Shown one piece after another: positions 37,000 to 63,843 of a stretch of 64,000 nucleotides of DNA. The stretch covers positions 2,087-66,086 of the forward strand of contig CANQZW010000004.1 in assembly GCA_947628435.1 (NCBI GenBank), written 5' to 3'. A program made the translations under genes and the position numbers. Every line of letters starts with the position of its first letter. The first letter of the stretch is position 1. The notes beneath the pieces are model-generated. The model did not search any database. It was given only the letters and a program-made list of their open reading frames with translations, and was not told the origin of the DNA. This stretch comes from an uncultured Bacilli bacterium (GTDB lineage: Bacteria; Bacillota_I; Bacilli_A; RF39; UBA660).

Positions 37000-38628
37000 T
37001 TATTTTTCCTCCGTTTCTATTAATTCATTAAACTCACTTAAAGTTGTTCTATCTTTTAATTTTTTCACTTTTGATAACAGCAACTTTTCATCTTTTAGTT
37101 GCAATTCATTATTCTTAACTAAATTAACATATTCTGGTCTTATTTTTTGCCAATATTCATCTGTTATATATACTATTTTGTATGTATTATCATATATTTT
37201 TTCAAATATTTTTTTACTTATATCATATTCTTTTTCTATTTTTGTCAAAAACGATTTTATTGGTATAGTAACAATAACGCCTGTCTTTGAAGCTGCTACT
37301 GGTTTACATTTTAATAATATTCCAGCACTTTTTTTATATTTTTCATTTGTTAAATATTCATTAAGCGTATTCCATTTTTTATTAATAGAATTCAATTCAT
37401 CACGAGATGAGTTTTTTAATATATTATTTATTCTAACATTTTTTAATTCATCTACTGTTTTTAAAAAATCATCTTCCTCTAATGTTTCACGTGAAACATT
37501 AGAAACATTTTCTTCTTTTTTACTTGAATTGCTTAGATTGTTATTTGATGTTTCACGTGAAACATCAAATTTACTCATTAATTTTATTATATTTACCTCA
37601 AAAATCAAATTTTTATCTATATTGTATTGTAATTTGTTTGATAATTCTATTAAGTCATCTATTAAATCATATAGTTTTTTTTCAGATAAGTTATCAAACA
37701 AAACAAACAAATTATTATTTGCATCCTTTAACACTTTTTTTCTATATAAAATAACATTTCTTATACATGTAATTAATTTTTGTGACACTAAATAAAAATC
37801 TTTACCATTATTTGACCATTTATGAGACATTTCAATTATTTTATCATATTTTAAATTTAATAAATTATTAAAAAACTTTTCGACTTCTCCATCAGAAATT
37901 GTGCCTGATAATTCTTGAATATCTTCTAATGATATTTTATTATCACAAAATGCAAAAGCTTGATCTAACATTCCAATAGCGTCTCTCATTCCGCCTTTTG
38001 AATTACGAATAATTTCATATAATGCGTCTTGCTCAATAGGTATGTTTTCTTTTTGTATAATATTTTCAAGACATTGTTTCATGTAATCTTGAGTTATATT
38101 TTTAAAATCAAACCTTTGACATCTTGATATAACAGTTGTTGGTATTTTTTGTGGTTCTGTTGTTGCTAAAATAAATATTACATATTCTGGCGGTTCTTCT
38201 AATGTTTTTAGCAAAGCATTAAAAGCTCCTATAGAAAGCATATGTACCTCATCTATTATATATACTTTATATTTTGACATTGAAGGTACTAAGCCTACGT
38301 TATTTTTTATTTCTCTTATTTCATCAACACCATTATTAGAAGCAGCATCTATTTCTATTATATCCGGATTAGCATTATCATTAAACGATATGCAACTACT
38401 GCACTTATTACATGCATCACCATCTTCGTTATTATAACAATTTATAGCTTTTGCAAATAACTTTGCGCAACTTGTTTTACCGGTTCCTCTTGGTCCAGTA
38501 AATAAATATGCATGACATAATTTATTGTTTTTTATAACATTTTTTAATGTTTTTACAATAACATCTTGTCCAAAAACCAGATTAAAGCTATTTGGTCTAT
38601 ATTTTCTATATAATGTTTGATATGTCAT
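37000..38628 (-). CDS. dnaX: DNA polymerase III subunit gamma/tau
   Basis: 542 aa from MTYQTLYRKYRP. Contains GPRGTGKTS, zinc module CNKCSSC, DEVHML and SRCQRF. The variable linker carries two VSRET peptides encoded by parS palindromes. Confidence 0.95.
   Translation of the reverse strand: MTYQTLYRKYRPNSFNLVFGQDVIVKTLKNVIKNNKLCHAYLFTGPRGTGKTSCAKLFAKAINCYNNEDGDACNKCSSCISFNDNANPDIIEIDAASNNGVDEIREIKNNVGLVPSMSKYKVYIIDEVHMLSIGAFNALLKTLEEPPEYVIFILATTEPQKIPTTVISRCQRFDFKNITQDYMKQCLENIIQKENIPIEQDALYEIIRNSKGGMRDAIGMLDQAFAFCDNKISLEDIQELSGTISDGEVEKFFNNLLNLKYDKIIEMSHKWSNNGKDFYLVSQKLITCIRNVILYRKKVLKDANNNLFVLFDNLSEKKLYDLIDDLIELSNKLQYNIDKNLIFEVNIIKLMSKFDVSRETSNNNLSNSSKKEENVSNVSRETLEEDDFLKTVDELKNVRINNILKNSSRDELNSINKKWNTLNEYLTNEKYKKSAGILLKCKPVAASKTGVIVTIPIKSFLTKIEKEYDISKKIFEKIYDNTYKIVYITDEYWQKIRPEYVNLVKNNELQLKDEKLLLSKVKKLKDRTTLSEFNELIETEEK
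37483..37498. promoter_or_regulatory. parS: parS site 1 (TGTTTCACGTGAAACA), inside dnaX
   Basis: Exact 16-bp palindrome matching the ParB/Spo0J consensus TGTTNCACGTGAAACA. The palindrome extends to 20 bp (37481-37500). Confidence 0.8.
37549..37564. promoter_or_regulatory. parS: parS site 2, inside dnaX
   Basis: Exact copy of the 16-mer. The palindrome extends to 20 bp (37547-37566). It is 66 bp from site 1. Confidence 0.8.
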
Positions 38629-38691
38629 AATATTTTTTCCTTTCATAAACATTATATCATTTAAAAAAGTTTTTTAAAACTTTAAATACAA

Positions 38692-38707
38692 TGTTTCACG
38701 TGAAACA
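38692..38707. promoter_or_regulatory. parS: parS site 3, tadA-dnaX intergenic
   Basis: Exact copy of the 16-mer. The palindrome extends to 22 bp (38689-38710). Confidence 0.8.
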
Positions 38708-38712
38708 TTGTA

Positions 38713-39123
38713 TTATTTTTTTCTTTTATCTTTAAAAAATTTTTGTATTAAATATAACGATTTATTATCGTCCTCAATATGTTTATATTTTTCTAATTTT
38801 ATTTTTATTTCTTTATCTTTTTCTTGCATAAAATATACTTTTTTTATACGACATAATTCTATGGCATTCATACAAAAATTACAAGGCTGTAAAGTAACAT
38901 ATAGTTCACAATCATTAAGTCTCCAATTTTTTAATTTTTTACAGGCTTTCGTTATAGCTATTATTTCTGCATGTAATATTGCATTTTTCTTTTGTTCTAC
39001 TTTATTATGAGCTTTTGATATTACTTTTCCATCTTTAACAATAACTGCACCAACTGGCACTTCACCTTTTTTATATGCTTTTTTAGCTTCTTCTAAAGCA
39101 ACATTAATAAATTTTTCGTTCAT
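38713..39123 (-). CDS. tadA: tRNA-specific adenosine deaminase
   Basis: 136 aa. Deaminase zinc motifs HAE and PCNFC. EVPVGAVIV near the N-terminus. Confidence 0.9.
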   Translation of the reverse strand: MNEKFINVALEEAKKAYKKGEVPVGAVIVKDGKVISKAHNKVEQKKNAILHAEIIAITKACKKLKNWRLNDCELYVTLQPCNFCMNAIELCRIKKVYFMQEKDKEIKIKLEKYKHIEDDNKSLYLIQKFFKDKRKK

Positions 39124-39143
39124 ATATTATTACCTCAAAATAA

Positions 39144-39159
39144 TGTTTCACGTGAAACA
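39144..39159. promoter_or_regulatory. parS: parS site 4, ffs-tadA intergenic
   Basis: Exact copy of the 16-mer, 21 bp upstream of the tadA start codon. Confidence 0.8.
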
Positions 39160-39174
39160 TATATTTTATAAAAT

Positions 39175-39253
39175 AAAAGCACACACAGAAAGAGGTTATT
39201 AAGGCTGCTACCTTTCGGTCCTGACCTGGTTCTAACATTTCCGTTGTGCACAA
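39175..39253 (-). ncRNA. ffs: signal recognition particle RNA, short 4.5S-type (about 80 nt)
   Basis: The minus strand reads ...AACCAGGUCAGGACCGAAAGGUAGCAGCCUUAA..., the conserved SRP domain IV. The 5' GUGCACA pairs with the 3' UGUGUGC. Followed by UUUUAUUU. End positions are approximate. Confidence 0.8.
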
Positions 39254-39255
39254 AT

Positions 39256-39284
39256 ATTTTATTATATTATCATAAATTAATCAA
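39256..39284 (-). promoter_or_regulatory. candidate ffs promoter, TTGATT-17 nt-TAAAAT
   Basis: On the minus strand, TTGATT is at 39284-39279 and TAAAAT at 39261-39256. The -10 element ends about 5 nt before the predicted RNA 5' end. Confidence 0.5.
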
Positions 39285-39318
39285 GTTTTATTATTAATCT
39301 TATTTAACTAATTTTTAA

Positions 39319-39334
39319 TGTTTCACGTGAAACA
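39319..39334. promoter_or_regulatory. parS: parS site 5, gyrA-ffs intergenic
   Basis: Exact copy of the 16-mer. The palindrome extends to 26 bp (39314-39339). Confidence 0.8.
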
Positions 39335-39356
39335 TTAAATATAATTTGTTTTTGTT

Positions 39357-41870
39357 CTATTCGTCCTCTAAAATTGCATCATCATTATAATTTTCATCTG
39401 CTTTTTCAACTATTGATACAGTTGAAACTTTTTGTCCTTCACGAAGATTTATTAATCTTACTCCTTGAGTAACTCTACTCATTTGTGAAACTTTATCTAA
39501 TGAAATTCTTATAACAATACCTTTATTAGTTATTATCATTAAATCTTTATCCGTTGTTACCGTCTTAAATGCAACAATGGTACCGTTTTTATCAGTAATA
39601 TTTAATGTTTTAACTCCTTTGCTTCCTCTATGTGTTAAACGATATTCATCTATTTTTGTTCTTTTTCCATATCCTTTTTCAGTTACAACTAATACATCTT
39701 GATGTTCTTTAGCTATTTCTGCTCCCACACATATACAGTTTTCAGATAATTCCATTCCTTTAACTCCAGATGCGGTTCTTCCTATTATTCTTATCTCATT
39801 TTCATTAAATCTAATCATTCTACCATTATTAGATGCAATAATTATATCATCATTTCCAGTTGTAAAATGAACAGATAAAACTTCATCATTTTCCTTTAAT
39901 GTAATAGCTATTTTACCATTTTTTCTAATATTTTTAAATTCAGATACATTTGTTCGTTTTACTATACCATATTTTGTTGCTATAACTAGATATTTATTAT
40001 CTTCATCTTCATTATCCAATAAAATACTATTTATTTTTTCATCTTTTTCAATTGGTAATAAATTAATTATTGGTAATCCTTTTGATTGCCTTGAAAATTC
40101 TGGAACTTCATATCCTTTTATTCTGTATACTTTTCCTTTATTAGTAAAGAACATTACGTAATTGTGTGTTGTTCCTGATTTTAATATTTCCACAAAATCT
40201 TCGTCATTCGTAGACATTCCTTTAATACCTACTCCACCTTTATTCTGTAATTTATATGTATCAGTTGTCATTCTTTTAATATATCCATTATGAGTAAGTG
40301 CTATAACTATGTCTTCTTCTGGTATTAAAGATTCATCTTCTATATAATCAATAGCAGTCATATCAATAGATGTTCTTCTTTCATCAGAATATTTTTTCTT
40401 TATTTCTAACATTTCTTCTTTTATAATATCTAATACTTTTTGATTTGATTCTAATATTGATTTTAAATTTTCAATTTCTTTTAGTAATTCGTCTAGTTCT
40501 TTTTCTATTTTATCTCTTTCTAGACCAGTTAATCTTCTTAAACGCATTTCAAGAATACTATTACTTTGGATTTCAGAAAGTCCAAATTTATTTATTAATT
40601 TTTCTTTTGCATCTTGATCATCTAAAGCCCCTCTTATTATTTTTACAACCTCATCGATATTATCTAAGGCAATTTTTAATCCTTCTAAGATATGAACTCT
40701 TTTTTCATCTTCATTTAATTCATACTTAGTTCTTCGTATGATAACCTCTTTTTGATGATCAATATATTTTGAAATAATATCCTTTAATCCAAGTGTTTTT
40801 GGAGTTCCATTATCAATCACTAAAAATATTATCCCATAATTAATTTGAAAATTAGTATGTCTATATAAATTGTTTAAAACAACTTGTGGATTTGCATCTT
40901 TTTTTAACGTAATTGTTATTTTAACACCATTTTTTAAATCTGTATGATAATCCGAAATTCCATCAATTATTTTATTATGAACAAGTTCTGCAACTTTGTT
41001 TTTTAATTCTAATGTATTTGTTCCATATGGAACTTCTGTTATTACTATTTGACTATGATTACCATTTTCTTCAATAAAAGCCCTACTTCTTATTGTTATA
41101 CTTCCTCTTCCTGTTTCATAGGCCTTTTTTATACCAGAATTACCTAAAATGATTCCTCCCGTTGGAAAATCAGGACCTTTTATATAATTCATTAAACCAT
41201 TAACATCAATGTCAGGATTATCTATGTAAGCAATACAACCATCAATTACTTCTCCTAAATTATGTGGTGGAATATTTGTGGCCATACCTACTGCAATTCC
41301 CATTGAACCATTAATTAAAACATTAGGTATTCTTGATGGTAATACAACTGGTTCAGGACTGGTTTCATCAAAGTTTGGCATCATATCAACAGTATCTTTT
41401 CTTATGTCTCTTAACATTTCTAAAGATATTTTAGATAATCTTGCTTCTGTATAACGATATGCTGCTGCACCATCCCCTTCTATATTACCAAAGTTACCAT
41501 GACCATCAACCATCATGTATCTTTGGTTAAAATCCTGTGCCAATCTTACCATTGCATCATATATTGATGAATCTCCATGTGGGTGATAATGTCCCATTAC
41601 ATAACCAACTGTTGTTGCACTTTTTTTATGTGGTTTATCTGGTGTGTTTCCTTCTTCATACATTGACCATAATATTCTTCTATGAACAGGTTTTAAACCA
41701 TCTCTTAAATCCGGTATTGCACGTGATGTAATAACACTCATTGAATAATCAAGGAAAGAATCAGAAATTTCTTTTACTATATCATTTTCATCATGTGAAT
41801 CTCTTTCGTGAAAAACTCCACTAAATTTATCTTTTTGTTCTTCTGTTTTATTTTCTTCTTTATTTTCCAT
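39357..41870 (-). CDS. gyrA: DNA gyrase subunit A
   Basis: 837 aa. Contains FLDYSMSVITSRAIPDLRDGLKPVHRR and active-site AAAYRYTEARL. SD GGAGG before the ATG. About 30 aa of acidic/lysine-rich N-terminal extension. Confidence 0.97.
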   Translation of the reverse strand: MENKEENKTEEQKDKFSGVFHERDSHDENDIVKEISDSFLDYSMSVITSRAIPDLRDGLKPVHRRILWSMYEEGNTPDKPHKKSATTVGYVMGHYHPHGDSSIYDAMVRLAQDFNQRYMMVDGHGNFGNIEGDGAAAYRYTEARLSKISLEMLRDIRKDTVDMMPNFDETSPEPVVLPSRIPNVLINGSMGIAVGMATNIPPHNLGEVIDGCIAYIDNPDIDVNGLMNYIKGPDFPTGGIILGNSGIKKAYETGRGSITIRSRAFIEENGNHSQIVITEVPYGTNTLELKNKVAELVHNKIIDGISDYHTDLKNGVKITITLKKDANPQVVLNNLYRHTNFQINYGIIFLVIDNGTPKTLGLKDIISKYIDHQKEVIIRRTKYELNEDEKRVHILEGLKIALDNIDEVVKIIRGALDDQDAKEKLINKFGLSEIQSNSILEMRLRRLTGLERDKIEKELDELLKEIENLKSILESNQKVLDIIKEEMLEIKKKYSDERRTSIDMTAIDYIEDESLIPEEDIVIALTHNGYIKRMTTDTYKLQNKGGVGIKGMSTNDEDFVEILKSGTTHNYVMFFTNKGKVYRIKGYEVPEFSRQSKGLPIINLLPIEKDEKINSILLDNEDEDNKYLVIATKYGIVKRTNVSEFKNIRKNGKIAITLKENDEVLSVHFTTGNDDIIIASNNGRMIRFNENEIRIIGRTASGVKGMELSENCICVGAEIAKEHQDVLVVTEKGYGKRTKIDEYRLTHRGSKGVKTLNITDKNGTIVAFKTVTTDKDLMIITNKGIVIRISLDKVSQMSRVTQGVRLINLREGQKVSTVSIVEKADENYNDDAILEDE

Positions 41871-45047: not shown

Positions 45048-45509
45048 TTAATAAATATTTTGAAATTCTTTTCTTTTTTTTGATAATAAAGTTTCTAATC
45101 TGTTTGCCCTTAATATCTGATTATCTATAATAGAATAAGATAATTTTAATTTAATTGTTTTTCCACAAGTAAATTTTATTATAATTTCTTCTTTTTCTTT
45201 ATAATATTCACTTATTTTATTTAAAGAAATCCAAGAACATTTATCTAACCTTGGTGATGCTGTTGGAAAAAATATTATTCCTTTACTTTCTTCTATAATA
45301 ATAGGAGCTTTATGAGATATACCTAATATTCTTTTTGTTCCTGCTAACCTTCCTTCATATGAACTTCCAAAAAATTTACAACTATTATCAATTATTTTCA
45401 TAGTAGAATTATTTACAATAAACTCATCATTTTCTTCTATTATTTTTGCCTTCTCATTTTCATAAGATAAAATAGCAAGTGTTTGTCTATTTATTTCATA
45501 ATTTTGCAC
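45048..45509 (-). CDS. comK: competence transcription factor ComK family protein
   Basis: 153 aa from the GTG at 45509 (SD GGAGG). IIDNSCKFFGSSYEGRLAGT..ISHKAPIII....IIFFPTASPRLDKCSWIS aligns with the conserved core of Bacillus ComK. Confidence 0.8.
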   Translation of the reverse strand: MQNYEINRQTLAILSYENEKAKIIEENDEFIVNNSTMKIIDNSCKFFGSSYEGRLAGTKRILGISHKAPIIIEESKGIIFFPTASPRLDKCSWISLNKISEYYKEKEEIIIKFTCGKTIKLKLSYSIIDNQILRANRLETLLSKKRKEFQNIY

Positions 45510-45576
45510 AATAAAACCTCCCTTAAAAATATTGCTATATATTATCCTCATTATTTTTAAAAAAATTGTCAAATTT

Positions 45577-45605: not shown

Positions 45606-46658
45606 TTAAGGTTTAAGTGATTTTACAGGTGCTTTTTTTTTGTCTTCTTTTTTTGAATCAATACTAAGCACTTTATTATAATAATCTCTAAAAGTAGAAT
45701 ACATATCTATTTCATCTAAATTATTTTCAATAAATGTTTTCTTTTGTAAATTATGATTAAGAGCTATCTGACAAAGATCAAACATTATATTTTCTTTAAT
45801 TAAATCATCTAATGAAAGTTTTCCTTCTCTTACGTCTTGATAAAGCTTTTCTTTAGTATTTTTATACCATTGATCATATTCAGAGGTTGTCCTTCTTTTT
45901 CCTAAATATATATATTTTTTCTTAATTTCAAATATTTTGTCATCATCTAATTGACTAAAATTCGGGTAATGTTTTAATATTTCTTTTTCACCTAATATTA
46001 AACTTTCCTTATAAATTTTATCGTGTATTTCGTCTTCTAACGTTGTTTTTAAAAGGCATTCATTAAAATATAAATTATAGTTTAATAAAGAACTTTTTCC
46101 TCCTAACTCCATACAACTAACAAGCATGGGAATATCGGCATAATCGTTTCCAACCGAATACAATTCATATTCTTCTAAGTTAAATTTTTCCTTAATTACT
46201 TTAAAGATGTCTTTTTTTTGATCAAGAAGTCCTATTTTATAACCATCAAATATAATGTGATGAATACCATATTCATTATATTCTTCAGTGATATGTGATT
46301 TTAATTTTTCTTGATCAAAACTTGCTGCACCACCTTTTGTTACCATATATAAAGTAAAATTTTTATTACAATATTTTAATATTTTTTCTATTATTTCTTC
46401 ATAAATAAACGTTAAATTTAGTTCATGGGAAGATAAATCTGATACTATTATAAGTTTGTTTCCATTATTTAAAAATTTTTTTAAATCATTTGCACATTGT
46501 AAGCATAATTTTTTCATTAAATATGCATGGTAATCTTTATCATTGCATATTTCATTAATATCTTTATAAGCATTAATGTCTCCGTATAAATAATTTGCTC
46601 CAATTATACTATCAGGAATTAACGTTCCAAATAAATCACTTACTAAAATTTTTGGCAT
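45606..46658 (-). CDS. HAD-superfamily (Cof-like) protein with a degenerate motif I and an extra C-terminal domain
   Basis: 350 aa from MPKILVSDLFGTLIP (SD GGAGG at 46664-46668). Motif I reads DLFGT rather than DxDxT. Motif IV-like VGNDYADIPML. About 125 aa of C-terminal extension without a recognisable motif. The ORF-track start at 46775 would overlap dnaN and is rejected. Confidence 0.55.
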   Translation of the reverse strand: MPKILVSDLFGTLIPDSIIGANYLYGDINAYKDINEICNDKDYHAYLMKKLCLQCANDLKKFLNNGNKLIIVSDLSSHELNLTFIYEEIIEKILKYCNKNFTLYMVTKGGAASFDQEKLKSHITEEYNEYGIHHIIFDGYKIGLLDQKKDIFKVIKEKFNLEEYELYSVGNDYADIPMLVSCMELGGKSSLLNYNLYFNECLLKTTLEDEIHDKIYKESLILGEKEILKHYPNFSQLDDDKIFEIKKKYIYLGKRRTTSEYDQWYKNTKEKLYQDVREGKLSLDDLIKENIMFDLCQIALNHNLQKKTFIENNLDEIDMYSTFRDYYNKVLSIDSKKEDKKKAPVKSLKP

Positions 46659-46719
46659 ACTTAACCTCCTATAAATGTTTATTATTATAACATTTAAAAA
46701 AAAATTAGCAATAGCTAAT

Positions 46720-47841
46720 TTAATATGTTTTAATTGGTAAAATAAGTTGTAATAAACTATCATCATCCTCATCAAGAATAATTATAGGTTGAATTTCACT
46801 ATTAAATTTTATTACTACTCCTTTACTTTCTACTGTTTTAATAGCATCCATCATAAATTTTGAAGAAAAAGCGATTTTTATATTTTTATTTTTATCTTTT
46901 TCAACTTCTATTTTTTCTTCTACCTTACCTATTTCTGGAGAATTAGAAGATATAATAACCTCATTATCATTACATTCAAATTTTATAATATTTTTATCTT
47001 TTTCACTTGTTAGTAAAGAGGCTCTATCTATAACATTATAAAGTTCTGTTGCATTTGTTTTAACTGAAAGTTCAAAAGAATTAGGAATTAATCTATCTAC
47101 ATCAGGAAATGTACCACTTAGAACTCTTGTCTGAAATAAAGTATTATCAAATTTAAATAAAACCTTATTATTAAAAATATGCATTTGTATTTCTTTTTCA
47201 TTTTCTTCTAATATTTTAGTTAATTCTATTAAATTTTTACCAGGAATAACTATGTTTATGTTTTCTTTAATATTATTATCTATATTTATACTTTTTTTAG
47301 CTAATCTATAAGAATCCGTTGATATGCATTCTAATTTGTTTTCTTTTATTTTAAAATTAATTCCAGTAAGTATTGGTCTTGTTTCTTGTTGAGAAACTGC
47401 AAAAGATGTTTTATATATTAAGTTTTTAAATTCTTCTTTCTTTAATATAATAGGTTCTTTTTTTTCTTCTAAATCTAAATTAGGAAATTCTGATGCTTCC
47501 ATGCAATTTAAATTAAATTCAGAATTACCACATGATATTAAAACTTTGATTCCATCTAATAATTCAAAATTAATTATTCTTCCTTCTAATTTTCTAATTA
47601 TTTCTAATATGTATTTTCCTTGAATAACAGTACTTCCTATTTTTTCTATTTTATCAAGATTTTCTTTATCTATAAAAGTTTCAATACTTATATTATTATC
47701 ACTAGCACTTAAAAACAAACCATTATTAGTTAAATTGAATTTAATACCTCCTAATACTGGAATTAAATTTTTACTAGATATTGCTTTACTTACAGAATTT
47801 AAACTTTGAAGTAGTACTTCTTTTTTTACACTAAATTTCAT
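46720..47841 (-). CDS. dnaN: DNA polymerase III subunit beta (sliding clamp)
   Basis: 373 aa. Immediately downstream of dnaA. Typical MKFSVKKEVLLQSLNSVSKAIS N-terminus and three-domain length. Confidence 0.95.
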   Translation of the reverse strand: MKFSVKKEVLLQSLNSVSKAISSKNLIPVLGGIKFNLTNNGLFLSASDNNISIETFIDKENLDKIEKIGSTVIQGKYILEIIRKLEGRIINFELLDGIKVLISCGNSEFNLNCMEASEFPNLDLEEKKEPIILKKEEFKNLIYKTSFAVSQQETRPILTGINFKIKENKLECISTDSYRLAKKSINIDNNIKENINIVIPGKNLIELTKILEENEKEIQMHIFNNKVLFKFDNTLFQTRVLSGTFPDVDRLIPNSFELSVKTNATELYNVIDRASLLTSEKDKNIIKFECNDNEVIISSNSPEIGKVEEKIEVEKDKNKNIKIAFSSKFMMDAIKTVESKGVVIKFNSEIQPIIILDEDDDSLLQLILPIKTY

Positions 47842-47881: not shown

Positions 47882-47980
47882 TGTGGAAAATGTGGAAAAA
47901 AAGTAATTTTGTTGATATTAAAAGAAAAAACAAATATTTTTATTCCACAAAAGATGTTTAAACAAAAAGATTTTTCCACA
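47882..47980. promoter_or_regulatory. DnaA-box cluster in the dnaA-dnaN spacer (second half of a bipartite oriC)
   Basis: TGTGGAAAA at 47882-47890 and 47891-47899 (tandem). TTTTCCACA at 47972-47980. Weaker TATTCCACA at 47941-47949. Confidence 0.7.
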
Positions 47981-47982
47981 AT

Positions 47983-49332
47983 TTATATTTTCTTTTTTAA
48001 TTCTTCTATTATAGATTTAAATTGATTATTATTATTTATTTCAGTACTTATTTTATCAACTGAATGCATAATTGTTGAATGATCTCTTCCACCAAATTGT
48101 ATACCTATTTTAGGAAATGATTCATCAGTTAATGTTCTACATAAATATATAGCTACTTGTCTTGGAAAAGCTATACTTGCTTTTCTTTTTTTTGATTTTA
48201 AATCATCTACTGTTATATTATAATAATCCGCTACTACTTGTTGAATTTTTTGAATATTATTTTTAGTAAATGATGATTTTGATAGATAATCTTTTAAAGC
48301 ATCAATAGCAAGAGATAAATTTATTTCATTGGTATTAAACATAGTAGCATAAGCAATTACTCTTGTTAAAGCACCTTCTAATTGTCTTACGTCTGATTCA
48401 CAATTATTAGCTATATAAGAAATTACATCATCATTTATTGTACCTTCCATGTTTTGACCTAAAATTTTTTTTCTAAGTATTTGTACTCTCATTTCATAAT
48501 CAGGTGGATAAATATTAACACTAAGTCCCCAATTAAATCTTGTTCTTAACCTATCTTCTAATTTTTTTAAATCATCTGGAGATCTATCTGATGATATAAT
48601 AATTTGCTTGTTATCATCATATAAATTATTAAATGTATTAAAGAATTCTTGTTGTGTTTGAGTGGCACCACCTAAGAATTGAATATCATCAATTATTAAA
48701 ACATCAACTGCCCTATACTTATTTTTAAAACTATCAATGTAATTAAAGTTAGTACCAGATTCGTCCTTTTTATTTAAATTAAGAAAATCAGATATAAATT
48801 GTTCACTTGTTACATATAAAACTTTTTTATTAGAATTTTCAATAATAAAGTTTCCAATAGCATGCATTAAATGGGTTTTACCAAGTCCACTATTTCCATA
48901 TAAAAATAAGGGATTATATGTTTTTCCAGGATTTTCTGCAACAGATACCGCAGCCATATATGCAAATTTATTACTATCTCCTACAATAAAAGAATCAAAT
49001 GTGTATTTGGAATTTAAATTTGATTTTTCTGGTGTATTTAATGGTACGCCAATGTTTTGAATATCTATATTTGAATTATTTTCAATTTCGTCTTCAAAAA
49101 CAAAATCAAAATCAAAACTTGTGTTAGTAATTTCACTAAATACATCTGATATGGTTTGATACCAGGTTTCTTGTAAACTTTTCTTTTGTAAAGGAGAATC
49201 TACAAGTATCTTTGCAACATTATTATCAAGAGATAAAAGCTTTGTGTTTTTAAACCATGTATCATATGACAAAGAAGATATTCTTGATTTTATTTTTTCT
49301 AGGAAATTATCCCATAGATTATCTATGTTCAT
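47983..49332 (-). CDS. dnaA: chromosomal replication initiator protein DnaA
   Basis: 449 aa. Walker A GNSGLGKTH and Walker B LIIDDIQF. C-terminal DNA-binding HTH (FPKIGIQFGGRDHSTIMHS). Confidence 0.97.
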   Translation of the reverse strand: MNIDNLWDNFLEKIKSRISSLSYDTWFKNTKLLSLDNNVAKILVDSPLQKKSLQETWYQTISDVFSEITNTSFDFDFVFEDEIENNSNIDIQNIGVPLNTPEKSNLNSKYTFDSFIVGDSNKFAYMAAVSVAENPGKTYNPLFLYGNSGLGKTHLMHAIGNFIIENSNKKVLYVTSEQFISDFLNLNKKDESGTNFNYIDSFKNKYRAVDVLIIDDIQFLGGATQTQQEFFNTFNNLYDDNKQIIISSDRSPDDLKKLEDRLRTRFNWGLSVNIYPPDYEMRVQILRKKILGQNMEGTINDDVISYIANNCESDVRQLEGALTRVIAYATMFNTNEINLSLAIDALKDYLSKSSFTKNNIQKIQQVVADYYNITVDDLKSKKRKASIAFPRQVAIYLCRTLTDESFPKIGIQFGGRDHSTIMHSVDKISTEINNNNQFKSIIEELKKKI

Positions 49333-49722
49333 AATAACCTCCTTTCCCCCTAAAAAGAGTATTTCACTTACATTTTATCAAAAAAAAGAATTAAAAACAA
49401 TCAATATTGTAAAATATTGTTATCCACACTACTTTTCCACAACAAAAATTATATAAAATAAAAGATTTTTAAAATATTACACTTTTCCACAACCAAATAA
49501 AAAATAAAAAAAGAACAAAGTTAAAAAAGTTATCCACAGATTGTTAATAAATGTTAAAAAATATAAAAAATAAAGAAAAAATTTAAATAATATGTGGATA
49601 ACTTTGTGTTAAACTAAAAAATTATTTATAAATAATAAAATAGTTGACAATAATTAAAATAACTCATATAATAGTCGTGTTAAAAAAAACGAAATATTAA
49701 ATAAAAGTTGGAGGTGTATAAA
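49333..49722. other. oriC: oriC upstream region: DnaA-box cluster plus an AT-rich unwinding stretch
   Basis: Perfect TTATCCACA at 49420-49428 and 49530-49538. Perfect inverted TGTGGATAA at 49593-49601. One-mismatch TTTTCCACA at 49433-49441 and 49483-49491. The sequence between the boxes is nearly pure A/T. Confidence 0.8.
49644..49672 (+). promoter_or_regulatory. consensus sigma-A promoter of rpmH-rnpA, TTGACA-17 nt-TATAAT
   Basis: TTGACA at 49644-49649 and TATAAT at 49667-49672, with an exact 17-nt spacer. Confidence 0.7.
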
Positions 49723-51965: not shown

Positions 51966-53303
51966 ATGTATAAAGATAAAGATTTGAAAAGTAAAAATCA
52001 AATAAGTAAAATAGAACAAAGAAAAAATAATCATATAAAACTAACATCAGCTTTTTTATCATTAATTTTATCAATTGAAGGAACGGTTTGTTTACAATCT
52101 TTAAAATATAATAAACCTTATGTTGTTAAACATATTAATCCTTTTAATGGTAATAGTATATGTTTTGATTCGGTTGCTGATTATCAAGCTGAAAAGGTAG
52201 TTGAATTTATTTCTGATAATGAGTTTAAAGATATAGATGAATATATGAAAAATTTAGATATTAAAGAAAAAAAAGCATATGCTTTATATTTTGCTTTGTT
52301 AGAAAATAAATATCTAACTGACGAAGAAAAAGAAAAGTTAACATCATATATTCAGTATTTTATAGATAATAAATATTTAGATTATGAATATATTTATAAT
52401 AAATTTTCAAATTTTTTCATTCCTTTAAATGATGAAAATTTATTTAAAAATAAAAATATAACAGGTGGACAATATAATTCTTTTTTTAATTATATAATTT
52501 TTACATCTAAAAAAGGGAGAGAAAGCTCATTAAGTCATGAAATATATCATGCAGAAGATAAAATTATTAAATTTGAAAATAATTCATCTTGTATTTGGTT
52601 TATTGAGGGTTTAACGTCTTTATTAGATTATGAATATAATAATAAGTTGTCTTTTTCTTATAAGGAAGAAGTAACGTTTTGTAGAATTTTATGTGAATTA
52701 GTAGGTTCTGATGTATTATTTGAAACAAGAGCTAAAGGAAATATTAACATATTAATTAATGCATTTATTAATAAAGGATTAGAAAGACAAGAAATTATAA
52801 ATTTATTTAATTTGTTTAATGAATTTACTATTGAAAAAAGAAAAGAAAATATTAGTAATGAAAAAGAAAATACATCTCTTACTGAATTAAAGATAGAAAT
52901 AATAAAAACACTTAAAAATATGTATTTAAAGATAAATGAAAATAAGAAATATGTAAGTCCAATGTTTTATCAGTATATTGTTTGTATTGCTGAATCTTCT
53001 TTTAGATATAATTTTGATAAATTTATTTCTGAAAAATATTATTTTAACAGTCTAAAAAAAGATAAAATACCAATTACTAAAGGAATTAATATGAATAAAC
53101 AAACATATGAGTTTTTTGATTCAAGCTACGAATATTATGATGACTATATAGAACAAACAGATGAAATTTATCAAATTCAGGCTAATACAACACAACGAAA
53201 GGTTTTAACAAAAACAACAAGAAAATATATGAATAAAGAAGATTTAAATCAAAACATAACAAGAATGATTGATCATTTAAGCAAAAATCAAAAATCAAAG
53301 TAA
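51966..53303 (+). CDS. membrane-anchored protein with an HExxH...E (MA-clan gluzincin-like) motif
   Basis: 445 aa. SD AAAGGAG. N-terminal TM segment (LTSAFLSLILSIEGTV). SHEIYHAEDK followed by IWFIEGLTSLL, with the Glu 19 residues after the second His. No other recognisable domain. Confidence 0.55.
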   Translation: MYKDKDLKSKNQISKIEQRKNNHIKLTSAFLSLILSIEGTVCLQSLKYNKPYVVKHINPFNGNSICFDSVADYQAEKVVEFISDNEFKDIDEYMKNLDIKEKKAYALYFALLENKYLTDEEKEKLTSYIQYFIDNKYLDYEYIYNKFSNFFIPLNDENLFKNKNITGGQYNSFFNYIIFTSKKGRESSLSHEIYHAEDKIIKFENNSSCIWFIEGLTSLLDYEYNNKLSFSYKEEVTFCRILCELVGSDVLFETRAKGNINILINAFINKGLERQEIINLFNLFNEFTIEKRKENISNEKENTSLTELKIEIIKTLKNMYLKINENKKYVSPMFYQYIVCIAESSFRYNFDKFISEKYYFNSLKKDKIPITKGINMNKQTYEFFDSSYEYYDDYIEQTDEIYQIQANTTQRKVLTKTTRKYMNKEDLNQNITRMIDHLSKNQKSK

Positions 53304-54762: not shown

Positions 54763-56577
54763 ATGAAATATGACATTATAGTAGTGGGGGCAGGTCATGC
54801 AGGATGTGAGGCAGCACTTGCAAGTGCTAGATTAGGTAAAAAAACACTACTTATTACGATAAACATAGATAATGTAGCAGATATGCCATGTAATCCATCT
54901 ATTGGTGGTTCTGCAAAGGGAATTGTTGTAAGAGAAATAGACGCATTAGGAGGAGAAATGGGGCGTAATGCAGATAAAACCCTTCTTCAAATTAAGATGC
55001 TTAATTCCTCTAAGGGACCTGCTGTAAGAAGTTTAAGAAGTCAAGCAGATAAAGTAAGCTATAAAAAAGAAATGATAAATACTTTAAAAAATACTTGTAA
55101 TTTAACAATAATGGAATCAATAGTAAAAGATTTAATTGTTGAAAATAATAAAGTAAAGGCAATAACAACAGAAGATAATAAAACAATTTATTGTAATGCA
55201 TGTATATTAACCACAGGTACTTATTTAAAAGCGGATATATTAGTAGGAGATAATAGAACGCCAAGTGGACCACATGGTGAAAAACGTGCTAATTTTTTAA
55301 GTGATAATTTGGCAAAGTTAGGTTTTAAATTATTAAGATTAAAAACGGGAACTCCACCTAGAATAGAAAGATCTTCAATTGATTTTTCTAAATTAAAAAA
55401 GGAAGATGGAGATGATTGTGCGTTAACATTTAGCTTTGATAATATAGTTTATTATGATTATAAAAATCAAGTTCCTTGCTATTTAACTTATACTAATGAA
55501 AAAACTCATAAAATAATAATGGATAATTTAAATAAGTCAGCTATGTATGGTGGTTTTTATGAAAATTTAGGTACAGGGCCTAGATATTGTCCTTCAATAG
55601 AAGATAAAATTGTAAGATTTAAAGATAAGGAAAGACATCAATTATTTTTAGAACCAGAAAGTATGTATTATGATGATATTTATCTGCAAGGCTTTTCTAC
55701 GTCTATGCCCCATGATATTCAAGAAAAGATGGTTCATTCATTAAAGGGTTTAGAACATGCTAAAATACTAAAATATGCATACGCAATTGAGTATGATGCA
55801 ATAGATCCACTTCAACTAAAACCAACTCTTGAAACAAAAATAATTGAAAACTTATTTACGGCTGGTCAAATAAACGGGACATCTGGATATGAAGAAGCAG
55901 CAGGACAAGGTATAATTGCAGGTATTAATGCAAGTTTAAAATTAGATAATAAAGAACCTTTAATATTATCCCGTAGTGAAGCTTACATTGGTGTATTAAT
56001 AGATGATTTAGTAACAAAAGGTACCATAGAACCCTATCGTTTATTAACATCAAGAGCAGAATTTAGATTGCTTTTAAGAAGTGATAATGCGGATTTAAGA
56101 TTAAGTAAAAAGGCCTATGAAATAGGATTGCTTTCAAAAAAAAGATATGAAAAATTAGAAGAAAAAATAAATGAAATAAATCAAATAGAAGAAGAAATGA
56201 AAAATATAACTTTTCCAGAATATAAATGCAATTTAAAAGACTATTTAAAAAGACCTGAAATAAAAATAATTGATTATAAAGATAAATTTAGTAAAAATTA
56301 TAGTAAGGAAGCATTAGAACAAGTAGAAATAAATCATAAATATGAGGGATATATATTAAAAGCAAAAAAAGAAGCTGAAAAAATAATAAGATTAGGTAAA
56401 AAACAAATTCCAGAAGATATAGATTATTCAAAAGTTGATAATTTAGCAACAGAAGCAAGACAAAAATTAGAAAAAATAAGACCAAGAACCATTGATCAAG
56501 CAACAAGAATAAGTGGTGTAAATCCATCAGATATAGCAATACTTATGGTGTATTTAAAGAGGTTTTATAATGAATAA
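54763..56577 (+). CDS. mnmG: tRNA uridine 5-carboxymethylaminomethyl modification enzyme MnmG
   Basis: 604 aa from MKYDIIVVGAGHAGCEA (FAD dinucleotide fold), with SD GAAGGTGG. The ORF-track TTG start at 54727 is probably over-extended. Confidence 0.96.
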   Translation: MKYDIIVVGAGHAGCEAALASARLGKKTLLITINIDNVADMPCNPSIGGSAKGIVVREIDALGGEMGRNADKTLLQIKMLNSSKGPAVRSLRSQADKVSYKKEMINTLKNTCNLTIMESIVKDLIVENNKVKAITTEDNKTIYCNACILTTGTYLKADILVGDNRTPSGPHGEKRANFLSDNLAKLGFKLLRLKTGTPPRIERSSIDFSKLKKEDGDDCALTFSFDNIVYYDYKNQVPCYLTYTNEKTHKIIMDNLNKSAMYGGFYENLGTGPRYCPSIEDKIVRFKDKERHQLFLEPESMYYDDIYLQGFSTSMPHDIQEKMVHSLKGLEHAKILKYAYAIEYDAIDPLQLKPTLETKIIENLFTAGQINGTSGYEEAAGQGIIAGINASLKLDNKEPLILSRSEAYIGVLIDDLVTKGTIEPYRLLTSRAEFRLLLRSDNADLRLSKKAYEIGLLSKKRYEKLEEKINEINQIEEEMKNITFPEYKCNLKDYLKRPEIKIIDYKDKFSKNYSKEALEQVEINHKYEGYILKAKKEAEKIIRLGKKQIPEDIDYSKVDNLATEARQKLEKIRPRTIDQATRISGVNPSDIAILMVYLKRFYNE

Positions 56578-57271
56578 AGATGAATTTATAAAAGAACTTG
56601 AAAAAATAAATATAAAAGTAACAGAAAAACAATTAATGATGCTAGATGTTTATTATAAAATGTTAATTGATTATAATAAACATACAAATTTAACTAGAAT
56701 AACAAATGAACAAGACGTATACTTAAAACATTTTTATGATAGCTTAACAATAATAAAAGCAGTAGATTTAAAAAATAAAACATTGATAGATGTAGGAACG
56801 GGTGCTGGATTTCCAGGCTTAGTATTAAAAATTATTTTTCCAACATTAAAAGTAACACTTCTTGATTCATTAAATAAAAGAATAGAATTTTTAAAATTAG
56901 TTATTAATAATCTAAACTTAGAAAATATAAACGTGATACATCAAAGAGCTGAAGAATATGCCCTATCAAATAGAGAAAAATTTGATATAGTAACCTCCCG
57001 TGCGGTATCATCTCTTCCAATACTATCAGAACTTTGTATTCCAATGGTTAAATTAAATGGTTATTTTGTTGCAATGAAAGCAGAGGCAAAGCAAGAACTT
57101 GAAAACTCAAAAAAAGCCATAAAAACACTAGGAGGAGTTATAAAGGATATCGTTATATTTAAGCTTCCTAAAGATAATGGATTAAGAACATTAATTATAA
57201 TAGAAAAAAAACAAATAACGAGTGTTAAGTATCCACGTAAATTTTCTGAAATTAAAAAAAAGTCATTGTAA
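56570..57271 (+). CDS. rsmG: 16S rRNA (guanine527-N7)-methyltransferase
   Basis: 233 aa. LIDVGTGAGFPGLVLKI SAM motif. Overlaps the mnmG stop. Confidence 0.93.
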   Translation: MNKDEFIKELEKINIKVTEKQLMMLDVYYKMLIDYNKHTNLTRITNEQDVYLKHFYDSLTIIKAVDLKNKTLIDVGTGAGFPGLVLKIIFPTLKVTLLDSLNKRIEFLKLVINNLNLENINVIHQRAEEYALSNREKFDIVTSRAVSSLPILSELCIPMVKLNGYFVAMKAEAKQELENSKKAIKTLGGVIKDIVIFKLPKDNGLRTLIIIEKKQITSVKYPRKFSEIKKKSL

Positions 57272-57285: not shown

Positions 57286-57322
57286 TTGTATTATTTAGTT
57301 AATGATAAAGGGGATTAGAAAT

Positions 57323-58498
57323 ATGTTTAACAATGATCAAAACTTTAATAATAATTTTAATAATAACACAAATTCGTTCTTTCAAAATTATTCTAATAAT
57401 ATAGATAATCAAAATTCTGATTTGTCCAAAAATAATTTTAATTTAGAATATCAAACTGAACAAGAAATGCCACCAGAATTAGGTGATATAAAAAATTTAA
57501 GTGATGCTACTGTATTTAGTGCACCAACCATGGATGTTTTAAGTCCTATGAACGTAATGCCAGAAAATATACCACAGCAGGATTTATTAGATAAGTATGA
57601 AAATGGCAACTTAAATAACTTTGAATCTTCAAATACTACGTTACCAAATCAAACAAACCAAGAACCTTCTTTTTTATCACCTGGTATTATACAAAATACT
57701 AATAATAGTTATGATATTGATAACAATTATTCGGTAAATAATGATTTTAATTTAGAATCTTCTTTTATTAATTCAGATAATATATCTAAAAATGTTGATG
57801 GTAAGTTACCTTTAAATCTTTTTGATAATACAAAAGATAATGATTTTGACATTCAACCCCCTTTAGAAGAATATCATAAACATCAAGAAAATTTAAATGA
57901 CGAATTAGATTCAAAAGAAGAAAGTTATACTATTTTAGATAATAAACTTAATAATATTGATCAACAAGATAATGATTTAATAAAAGAAAACGATTATAAA
58001 ATTATAGATAACAAAAAATTAAATGATGAGGATATTAATTTAACTAAGGAACCAAATCAACAATCACAAGATTCACATGACGAAAATGATATATTTAATG
58101 AAATAAATAAAGAAGAAAAAGAAGAAATACAAATTTCTAAAGAAGAAGAATCAACAAGTGAAGAACAAAAACAAGAAGAAGAAAACGAAAATGATGATTA
58201 TGAGATTGTAGAAGATAAAAAAATAAACGATGATGATTTATCTCAATTACAAGATTTAGGCATAGAAAATTCTTATGATACTGAAGATACATTAGATATA
58301 ATGGATATAAACGAAGAAGAATCATCAAATAAGGAAGAACAAGAAGAAACAGAAAATAAAGAAGAAAAATCTACTAAAGAAATAGTTGATAAAATTAAAG
58401 ATTTAGTAGAGGAATTAAAAACCGATGGAAAAGATATAAATATAGAAGAATTTGATTTTGAAAAAATGTATCAAATAATAATAAAAATTGATAAATAG
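57323..58498 (+). CDS. highly acidic Asn/Asp/Glu-rich low-complexity protein, unknown function
   Basis: 391 aa from MFNNDQNFNNN (SD AAGGGGA). No TM segment or signal peptide. Only the last roughly 50 aa (KEIVDKIKDLVEELKTDGKDINIEEFDFEKMYQIIIKIDK) look like ordered sequence. Confidence 0.55.
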   Translation: MFNNDQNFNNNFNNNTNSFFQNYSNNIDNQNSDLSKNNFNLEYQTEQEMPPELGDIKNLSDATVFSAPTMDVLSPMNVMPENIPQQDLLDKYENGNLNNFESSNTTLPNQTNQEPSFLSPGIIQNTNNSYDIDNNYSVNNDFNLESSFINSDNISKNVDGKLPLNLFDNTKDNDFDIQPPLEEYHKHQENLNDELDSKEESYTILDNKLNNIDQQDNDLIKENDYKIIDNKKLNDEDINLTKEPNQQSQDSHDENDIFNEINKEEKEEIQISKEEESTSEEQKQEEENENDDYEIVEDKKINDDDLSQLQDLGIENSYDTEDTLDIMDINEEESSNKEEQEETENKEEKSTKEIVDKIKDLVEELKTDGKDINIEEFDFEKMYQIIIKIDK

Positions 58499-61831: not shown

Positions 61832-62542
61832 ATGATAAATTTTATACTTTGTGATGATAATAAATATGTCACAGATTTAAATGAAACTATCATTAAAAAA
61901 GTTGCCATGCCTTATGATTTTAGTTATAAAATATATTCATTTGATAAGTATAATATTAAACTAAAAAATTTAATAAACGCACCATTAGATGTTAAAATTT
62001 ATATATTAGATTTAGAATTACCAAATAAAACAGGATTAGATATAGCAAGAGAAATAAGGAAGGTTGATTGGGATAGTATTATAATAATATTAACTTCACA
62101 TGATGAATTAGAACTTAATATGTCTAAACAAAAGTTACTAATATTTGATTTTATATCAAAATTTGATAATTATGAAGAAAGATTATCAGATAGCATAAAA
62201 ATGATTATAAATAAAATAGATAGGAAAAAAGTAATTTGTTTTAAATGTAATAAAGAAATACACCATGTAAATTTAGACAATATTTTATATATTTATAAAG
62301 ATAATTTGTCAGATAAAACAACCATAGTAACTGCAACTAATGAATATCCTATAAATGAATCTTTAATTAATATAGTAAGCAAATTAGATTCAAGATTTTA
62401 TCAAACACATAGAGCATGTTACGTTAATGTTGATAAAATTGATAGTGTTGATTTTAAAAATAGTATAATTAATTTTAATAATGGAAAAAGCATTGATTAT
62501 TTATCAAGAAATTATAAAAAAGGATTGAGGGAAGTATTATGA
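61832..62542 (+). CDS. LytTR-family response regulator (AgrA-like)
   Basis: 236 aa. Receiver domain (ILCDDN, phospho-acceptor in YILDLELP, ILTSH). C-terminal LytTR domain (FYQTHRACYVNVDKI). Confidence 0.85.
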   Translation: MINFILCDDNKYVTDLNETIIKKVAMPYDFSYKIYSFDKYNIKLKNLINAPLDVKIYILDLELPNKTGLDIAREIRKVDWDSIIIILTSHDELELNMSKQKLLIFDFISKFDNYEERLSDSIKMIINKIDRKKVICFKCNKEIHHVNLDNILYIYKDNLSDKTTIVTATNEYPINESLINIVSKLDSRFYQTHRACYVNVDKIDSVDFKNSIINFNNGKSIDYLSRNYKKGLREVL

Positions 62543-63843
62543 ATTCATTCTTTATACCACTAATAATTATTTCTCAAACATTTACAGAATATATTGTATT
62601 TTTGAAAATAATTAACAACGATAATAATATTAAAAAAAATAAAAAAATATTTATATTTGTAGTATTTTTATCTCAAATGTTTATATCGAATTATGTTTTG
62701 CCGGATTATTTAAGATATGTATTTACTATAACTATATTCACATGCACTTCCCATTTTATATTAAAAAAAAATTTAATTGAATCCTTTGTTACTAGTATTT
62801 TAACTTTAATTTTAATATCAATAGTAGAAATAATTATAACAATAATTCTTTTCGTTATTGGTATAAAACCACAGCAGATATCGGAAAATATAAACAATCA
62901 ATTTTTATTAAATATGGTTATATCCTTATTGTCTATTCTCATAATAAATTTAAAGAAAATTTTAGACATTATTTTAAATATAAAAATAATTTGTATAAAA
63001 AGAAAGGTTTTATTTAAATACATAATAATAATTTTAATTATAATATATTTGATATTGGCAAAAAATATTTTATTTGCTCGTGTGACCTTGGAAATGATAA
63101 TAAATCTTATAATATTATTTGTGTCTTTTCTTTTATTCATTTTAATATTTATATCTGATAATAAAAATAGCCAGTTAGAAGAGGCAAATAAACAAATGTT
63201 AAATTATGTAACTAAATATGAGAAAATAATAGCAGATCAGGGTAAAGCAAACCATGAATTTAGAAACCAATTAATGGTAATTCGTGGTTATGCTCAAATG
63301 AATTCTCCTAAACTTATTGAATATTTAGATTCAATAGTTGATGATACCAAAAAGACACATAGTAGTTATTTGATAAGTCAATTAAATAAATTCCCTGATG
63401 GTGGTATTAAAGGACTTTTATATTATAAATTATCTATAATGGATGATGAAAATATAAAGTATGAAATAAATGTAGATACAGGTGTTAAAACAAAGTTAAA
63501 ATCATTAGACACAATTATTTATAAAAACATAACTAAAATATTAGGTGTTTTATTAGATAATTCAATAGATGCTAGTAAGCAAAGTAAAAACAAAAGAATT
63601 ATTATATCTGTGACAAATGAAAAATCTAAAGTAATATTTAATATTTCAAATACTTATAAAGGAAAAATTGATGTGTCAAAATTAAGTACGGGTTACACTA
63701 CAAAAGGAAAAGGACATGGATATGGGTTAAGATTAGTTAAGGATATAATAGATGAAAATGAAAATTTTGAAATTCAAAGATCGGTGGATGAAAATTATTT
63801 TGTAACAAATTTTAATATATTAATAAAAAGAAAGAAAAAGTAA
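62539..63843 (+). CDS. AgrC-like GHKL sensor histidine kinase
   Basis: 434 aa with about six N-terminal TM segments. H-box ANHEFRNQLMVIRG, N-box LLDNSIDAS and G-box GKGHGYGLRLV. The start overlaps the regulator stop. Confidence 0.8.
   Translation: MNSFFIPLIIISQTFTEYIVFLKIINNDNNIKKNKKIFIFVVFLSQMFISNYVLPDYLRYVFTITIFTCTSHFILKKNLIESFVTSILTLILISIVEIIITIILFVIGIKPQQISENINNQFLLNMVISLLSILIINLKKILDIILNIKIICIKRKVLFKYIIIILIIIYLILAKNILFARVTLEMIINLIILFVSFLLFILIFISDNKNSQLEEANKQMLNYVTKYEKIIADQGKANHEFRNQLMVIRGYAQMNSPKLIEYLDSIVDDTKKTHSSYLISQLNKFPDGGIKGLLYYKLSIMDDENIKYEINVDTGVKTKLKSLDTIIYKNITKILGVLLDNSIDASKQSKNKRIIISVTNEKSKVIFNISNTYKGKIDVSKLSTGYTTKGKGHGYGLRLVKDIIDENENFEIQRSVDENYFVTNFNILIKRKKK

Follow-up and report, generated by a model that had tools for sequence, protein, structure and literature searches.

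The DNA analysed here is a stretch of 64,000 nucleotides (hereafter the window) from an uncultured Bacilli bacterium, positions 2,087 to 66,086 of contig CANQZW010000004.1 (assembly GCA_947628435.1). Within it, five perfect palindromic copies of parS, the binding site of the ParB/Spo0J protein, lie close together around gyrA, ffs, tadA and dnaX near the replication origin. As judged from the sequence, these five palindromes most likely form the chromosomal centromere, a parS cluster, of a ~25% GC, spore-forming member of the Bacilli near 'Candidatus Aphodocola', a reading to which we assign a probability of about 0.85. It is based on the identity of the sites to the consensus, their proximity to the origin, their uniqueness in the 64 kb and their conservation across the clade.

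Five perfect parS sites near the origin

A pattern search of both strands of the window located exact TGTTTCACGTGAAACA at 37483, 37549, 38692, 39144 and 39319, the same five copies that an initial annotation of this DNA had picked out. That annotation had seen no other exact copy in the remaining ~62 kb, and the search extends this to no further match at up to two mismatches on either strand of the whole window. The chance expectation for the 16-mer is 0.02 matches in dinucleotide-preserving shuffles, with 0 of 100 shuffles reaching five. All five sites agree at 16 of 16 positions with consensus parS TGTTNCACGTGAAACA, published as TGTTTCAC-GTGAAACA (PMC7383237; the consensus is also given in PMC7022226), which bears out the earlier equation of the 16-mer with the ParB/Spo0J consensus. 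An 18-mer core, ATGTTTCACGTGAAACAT, is present in all five, again as first described. The palindromes are indeed extended by their individual flanks, but not to the 20–26 bp given earlier; the perfect palindromes measure 26, 28, 30, 18 and 26 bp:

parS-1, 37483..37498: 26-bp perfect palindrome (37478-37503) centred on the exact 16-mer; in the dnaX linker, codons ~385-390, read VSRET
parS-2, 37549..37564: 28-bp perfect palindrome (37543-37570) centred on the exact 16-mer; in the dnaX linker, codons ~363-368, read VSRET
parS-3, 38692..38707: 30-bp perfect palindrome (38685-38714) centred on the exact 16-mer; intergenic, tadA/dnaX
parS-4, 39144..39159: exact 16-mer, the palindrome reaching the 18-mer only (39143-39160); between the ffs 3' end and the tadA start
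parS-5, 39319..39334: 26-bp perfect palindrome (39314-39339) centred on the exact 16-mer; flanked by the gyrA stop and the promoter region of ffs

Three sites are thus intergenic (gyrA/ffs, ffs/tadA and tadA/dnaX) and two fall inside the dnaX coding sequence, both in frame in the DnaX interdomain linker. The spacings between sites are 66, 1143, 452 and 175 bp. parS-3 follows the tadA stop by 6 bp and precedes the promoter-like hexamers of dnaX as well as its start codon. An origin of the window sites by tandem duplication was considered and rejected, as Tandem Repeats Finder (TRF) detected no repeat unit containing parS in the window and the 18-mer alone is shared. Half-sites are not enriched outside the array (4 GTTTCAC versus ~5 expected), so that enrichment of the Pseudomonas type was not seen, and the 16-mer was not found in the neighbouring loci L089 (10.5 kb) and L093 (20.7 kb).

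The window is the origin region of a Firmicute with ~25% GC and the standard genetic code. Its GC skew changes sign at ~49.5 kb, in a bipartite oriC in which two DnaA-box clusters flank dnaA. The array lies 8.5-12.1 kb from oriC, wholly on the dnaA-dnaN-gyrBA side; the DnaA boxes and GC skew thereby uphold the earlier placement at ~10-12 kb from dnaA/oriC on one replichore only. The features that locate the array are as follows:

dnaX, 37000..38652, minus strand: clamp-loader tau/gamma subunit (Pfam), with parS-1 and parS-2 in its interdomain linker
tadA, 38713..39123, minus strand: tRNA adenosine deaminase (Pfam)
ffs, 39170..39255, minus strand: small signal recognition particle (SRP) RNA (Rfam RF00169, 56.4 bits)
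gyrA, 39357..41870, minus strand (Pfam)
oriC region, 47882..49601: bipartite, DnaA-box clusters at 47882-47980 and 49420-49601, with the GC-skew sign change here
dnaA, 47983-49332, minus strand: between the two DnaA-box clusters

The likely true start of dnaX is 38628 (MTYQ...), in agreement with the ENA gene call of 542 aa.

Conservation of the array across the clade

Loci of the same species were recovered from eight other assemblies (L001-L008; ENA and Logan, gut-type) at 99.6-100% identity. Every parS site covered by these contigs is kept, namely all five in L001-L003 and three in the shorter L004-L008. Only 4-10 substitutions or indels separate the low-coverage contigs L002 and L003 from the window. 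In both contigs, dnaX is split into two open reading frames (ORFs; L002:1180-2808 and L003:1498-3126), which probably reflects assembly error or strain noise rather than true pseudogenisation.

More distant relatives were gathered by a DnaX-seeded scan, with one genome per GTDB species. DnaX identity to the window is 66% for L009 and 57% for L010, followed by metagenome-assembled genomes of uncultured Bacilli at 38-42%. The gene order dnaA-dnaN-comK-recF-gyrB-gyrA-ffs-tadA-dnaX is common to these relatives. One congener on a 1,066,292-bp contig (ERZ28751349:contig_17631) has the same gene order as the window, and RsmG homologues at ~70% identity include one named 'Candidatus Aphodocola sp.' by NCBI (Bacilli incertae sedis). 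All 13 clade relatives fetched carry 1-10 parS sites (0-2 mismatches) at the gyrA-ffs-tadA-dnaX locus, most of them at least three, while the other Firmicutes fetched in the same scan have no parS at this locus. The counts per relative are:

L010: 10
L074: 8
L009: 7
L020 and L028: 6 each
L013, L031 and L055: 5 each
L011: 4
L082: 3
L034, L040 and L042: 2 each

The positions of the sites follow relatedness. In the closest relatives they are homologous to those of the window, with sites following gyrA, ffs and tadA and others within the DnaX linker, and in more distant relatives every site lies between gyrA and ffs. Within the clade, the array's ancestral position is the intergenic region 3' of gyrA. 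The DnaX linker that houses the coding sites is a variable region, and its in-frame sites appear in two or three copies as (N/D)VSRET or VPRET (window 37483-37564, L009:11068-11152 and L010:11101-11206). The parS inside Bacillus subtilis spo0J, which we take to read NVPRET, is in the same frame as the VSRET sites of the window. Copy number in the closest relatives shifts by 44-45-bp tandem duplication. As determined by TRF, tandem units containing parS occur in L009, L010, L028, L031, L055 and L074, with unit lengths of 44 bp in L010, 62 bp in L031, 125 bp in L028 and 167 bp in L055.

Across 68 clade sites, the 18-mer core has A at position -1 in 68 of 68 and T at +1 in 66 of 68, and the intergenic flanks around it are not conserved. 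An invariant core amid such flanks points to selection on the site itself, and at the level of sequence this argues for purifying selection on a protein-binding site, by canonical ParB. Retention of the array at one locus across a clade in which DnaX is only 38-66% identical likewise fits what would be predicted for a functional centromere.

Palindrome flanks and the search for ParB

Two sets of observations weigh against the centromere reading, namely the symmetry of the palindrome flanks, which known ParB recognition does not explain, and the ParB protein itself, which went unobserved across the clade (the window, its reachable flanks and the noc/rsmG neighbourhoods of relatives).

Four of the five window palindromes reach 26-30 bp through flanks that differ between copies. 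At least four symmetric pairs beyond the 18-mer are present at 27% of clade sites, including these four, compared to 1% of random positions. The flanks of orthologous sites differ between L009 and L010, implying fast turnover. Two hypotheses may account for the symmetry: hairpin-templated template switching at a long perfect palindrome, or a weak flank preference of ParB (YWA...TWR). The same excess symmetry lends itself to an explanation in which the palindromes act mainly as hairpins or cruciforms, serving as terminators or insulators for gyrA, ffs, tadA and dnaX, with the match to parS being secondary. Three sites do sit exactly at gene boundaries, and parS-1 and parS-3 score terminator-like. 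However, both of these calls are on the plus strand, antisense to all genes here, and no sense-strand terminator was called at any site, so that intrinsic terminators were rejected. Two sites, moreover, are located in coding sequence. What stays invariant is precisely the 16-18-bp ParB site, whereas a structure would tolerate compensatory changes in the core, and the flanks differ between the orthologous sites of L009 and L010. We consider this explanation improbable, although it survives better than the other alternatives.

No ParB-family, ParA or SMC gene was found in the window with Pfam and NCBIfam (ORFs of at least ~180 aa and several below that size), and a Spo0J probe run with phmmer over the full set of 223 six-frame window ORFs returned no ParB. 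To gauge how common such clusters are, metagenomes were scanned for two perfect parS sites 28-58 bp apart, which gave at least 120 stretches; the same probe found a ParB-family gene in the same stretch in 63 of the 120 listed, typically in an mnmG-rsmG-parAB neighbourhood, which shows that the probe works. No window ORF has the deviant Walker A motif of ParA (KGGxGK[ST]) or ParB box II. Walking off both ends of the window, including 10 kb past the right end, did not reveal ParB either, and there is none after rsmG in the congener with the 1.07-Mb contig. Beside dnaA and rsmG in more distant relatives there is Noc only, and no ParB proper. In all, parB is absent from within 48 kb on the array's side and ~25 kb on the other side. 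The initial annotation had reported parA, parB and noc as missing from their usual place next to rsmG. For parA and parB this stands, and neither was found elsewhere in the window; for noc it calls for a qualification, as no intact Noc is encoded but the ORF after rsmG looks Noc-derived. ParA is dispensable in some Firmicutes (PMC7022226).

A probable Noc remnant and the loss of Noc-binding sites

The ORF in question is the following:

ORF after rsmG, 57302..58498, plus strand: 398 aa, low-complexity, rich in N, D and E, with no Pfam or NCBIfam match

It matches relatives' Noc over their C-terminal 60-110 aa only (BLASTP E = 0.003), and with a hidden Markov model built from Noc C-termini it is the best non-self match among 502 ORFs (E = 4e-5). 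ParB_N and helix-turn-helix (HTH) domains are absent from it in Pfam and NCBIfam searches. The ORF is therefore probably a remnant of Noc that keeps a Noc-like C-terminus and has no ParB_N or HTH. Relatives L094, L095 and L096 carry a single ParB-family protein after rsmG, with nucleoid_noc (TIGR04285) as the best NCBIfam match at 280-290 bits and, by eye, the Noc-type specificity residues Q..K..R in its HTH.

The binding sites changed in parallel with the protein. The genomes of L094, L095 and L096 carry perfect Noc-binding sites (NBS). In the 64-kb window the NBS TATTTCCCGGGAAATA has 0 matches at up to two mismatches, and in L009, L010, L089 and L093 it has 0 at up to one mismatch. A Noc-like ORF devoid of its DNA-binding domain fits this total absence. 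Since both the NBS and the DNA-binding domain of Noc are gone and parS is still perfect, parS would have a binder of its own that is still present. In this lineage, sites without a binder evidently decay and parS has not, which we take as strong, if indirect, evidence that a ParB is likely to exist.

The same comparison bears on the suggestion that the parS sites are themselves decaying relics, left after loss of ParB in the way that functional Noc was lost. Such a history would account for a window with no ParB, there or at the usual rsmG position, and it has a parallel in the lost DNA-binding domain of Noc; the 1.07-Mb contig of the congener also suggests a reduced genome. Relics, however, would not be expected to be perfect at all five sites and identical in the sampled strains, or to number 7-10 in L009 and L010. 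The NBS vanished completely where Noc lost its DNA-binding domain, and the coincidence of the two losses indicates that unbound sites would disappear quickly. We judge decay after loss of ParB to be slightly less probable still than hairpin formation.

A further step down are operators of another regulator, whether ParB-like or another HTH repressor, that would control ffs, tadA and dnaX. parS-3 and parS-5 are placed just upstream of promoter-like hexamers for dnaX and ffs, as operators might be, yet all sites match consensus parS at 16 of 16 positions and two are intragenic. Position and copy number vary among relatives, with tandem arrays of up to six units, which is centromere-like rather than operator-like, and a parB-family gene is nearby in the 63 of 120 listed metagenomic stretches with close pairs of the same 16-mer. 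Finally, a generic dispersed repeat or miniature mobile element can practically be dismissed despite the several identical copies with short inverted symmetry, as 18 bp alone are shared between copies with differing flanks, no copy occurs elsewhere in the 64 kb and the locus is the same across genera.

Other genes of the origin region

Leftward of oriC, the minus strand encodes dnaN, an ORF of unassigned family, comK, recF, gyrB, gyrA, ffs, tadA, dnaX, ybaB, recR, bofA and holB. To the right are rnpA, yidC, jag, a 445-aa ORF, mnmE, mnmG and rsmG (56570-57271), and after rsmG come the 398-aa low-complexity ORF, rpiB, spoIID, an M23 peptidase gene, mreB and an agr-like module.

Several of these genes are side observations in their own right:

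45048-45572, minus strand, and 45606-46775, minus strand: a comK homologue and a 389-aa ORF without family match, between dnaN and recF; the comK insertion is kept across the clade and the 389-aa ORF occurs in the window and L009 only
51966-53303, plus strand: the 445-aa ORF between jag and mnmE, with no family match, missing from the congener L093
17645-24485, minus strand: two very large ORFs of 732 and 1562 aa, the former weakly matching SpaH/EbpB LPXTG-pilin; a possible pilus or adhesin locus
61832-63843, plus strand: agr-like quorum-sensing module with a LytTR response regulator, a GHKL histidine kinase, an AgrB homologue and a 41-aa ORF that is possibly an AgrD-like peptide; the module is also seen at L089:8226-8993

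Proposed function and comparison with known centromeres

If the five palindromes are a centromere, established ParABS biology suggests how the array would work. A canonical ParB, presumably with its gene elsewhere in the genome, would nucleate as dimers on each 16-bp site. Upon binding cytidine triphosphate (CTP), the dimers would close to form sliding clamps and spread across several kb of adjacent DNA. Having five loading sites in 1.85 kb would raise the loading flux and produce one dense partition complex ~10 kb from oriC, which would mark, organise and segregate the origin region and would most likely recruit SMC-ScpAB. We infer the existence of this ParB, as well as its binding, spreading and SMC loading at the array, by analogy with these systems.

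Most species have several ori-proximal parS sites (PMC7022226). In Caulobacter crescentus, one arm bears a cluster of at least five parS sites at ~8 kb from ori (Tran et al. 2018, PMC5815017). The window resembles this arrangement in having several sites on one arm near oriC, and those of Caulobacter nucleate one ParB complex spanning ~10 kb (PMC5815017). The Caulobacter cluster is, in contrast, associated with the parAB region and includes imperfect sites of graded affinity, whereas the five sites of the window are all perfect and fall within 1.85 kb at gyrA-ffs-tadA-dnaX. Streptococcus pneumoniae has an incomplete Par system consisting of an orphan parB and four parS sites (PMC7022226); it too is a Firmicute with origin-proximal parS and no parA beside them, the absence of parA from the window covering 64 kb only.

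The Spo0J/parS system of B. subtilis comprises 10 sites (reviewed in PMC7022226). It belongs to the same phylum, shares the consensus and likewise has sites that can lie in coding sequence, and its sites load SMC. The B. subtilis sites, however, are distributed over a large origin-proximal domain with parB, parA and noc after rsmG, while those of the window are confined to one locus unlinked from rsmG. B. subtilis also has noc in the rsmG region, where the window has a Noc-like remnant without a DNA-binding domain.

Plasmid centromeres offer a further comparison. The sopC centromere of the F plasmid is built from 12 tandem 43-bp units. Multiple close palindromic sites for a ParB-family protein are a feature common to sopC-type centromeres and the arrays described here, those of L010, L031, L028 and L055 being truly tandem. 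Unlike those of sopC, the copies in the window are not tandem, and they match the chromosomal parS consensus instead of a site particular to plasmids.

The 120 listed metagenome stretches span 24-71% GC, and 26 of them have at least four parS sites per 2 kb, some up to 15. On a metagenome contig of 35% GC, 15 perfect parS sites are packed into ~1 kb (L115:1044-2027), ~1 kb upstream of dnaA, and the stretches L194 and L201 each have 10 parS sites within 2 kb. Other uncultured lineages, then, also have very dense parS arrays. Given the Caulobacter precedent (PMC5815017) and these many metagenome arrays, the earlier view of the compact cluster as unusual was overstated. The cluster is not unusual as a kind; what is distinctive is its stable unlinking from parB/rsmG and its placement among gyrA, ffs, tadA and dnaX.

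Composite parS/NBS arrays in sister lineages

In more distant relatives, perfect copies of the NBS TATTTCCCGGGAAATA are interspersed among the parS sites of the array between gyrA and ffs. The arrays take these forms:

L028:8622-9327: 125-bp unit holding a single parS and a single perfect NBS, repeated ~5.6 times
L031:18-435: 62-bp unit, likewise with a single parS and a single perfect NBS, repeated ~6.7 times
L034:9283-9397 and L040:9365-9433: parS-NBS-parS within ~100 bp or less

L034 and L040 are of the same species as L094 and L095, and L040:9365-9433 equals L094/L095:18727-18795. One search of the literature on tandem arrays of parS and NBS gave no relevant result, and we know of no description of interleaved ParB/Noc loading arrays.

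A joint reading of the window and its sister lineages can be offered tentatively, as possible rather than probable. The centromere would have been uncoupled from parAB/rsmG and fixed at gyrA-ffs-tadA-dnaX, with Noc reduced to a protein without a DNA-binding domain. The sister arrays would serve ParB and Noc, both CTP-switch clamps, as a composite loading platform that tethers the origin region to the membrane, and the pure-parS array of the window would be derived, having arisen once Noc was lost. In the same reading, the symmetric flanks, which evolve fast, could reflect hairpin-templated growth of the palindromes.

Implications

The window likely contains the centromere of an uncultured, small-genome lineage of gut Bacilli. 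Taken alone, its array adds little that is conceptually new, as this kind of element is well understood. The finding would mean that a centromere can sit stably away from parB/rsmG, at essential replication and SRP genes, clade-wide. The comparative context, with relocation from parB, the Noc remnant and the composite arrays of sister lineages, is a more interesting lead than the array itself. The series starts with interleaved parS and NBS, continues with arrays of parS alone between gyrA and ffs and ends with sites scattered round ffs, tadA and dnaX together with a Noc that has no DNA-binding domain, and it may serve as a natural experiment on how the site repertoires of ParB and Noc co-evolve with their proteins.

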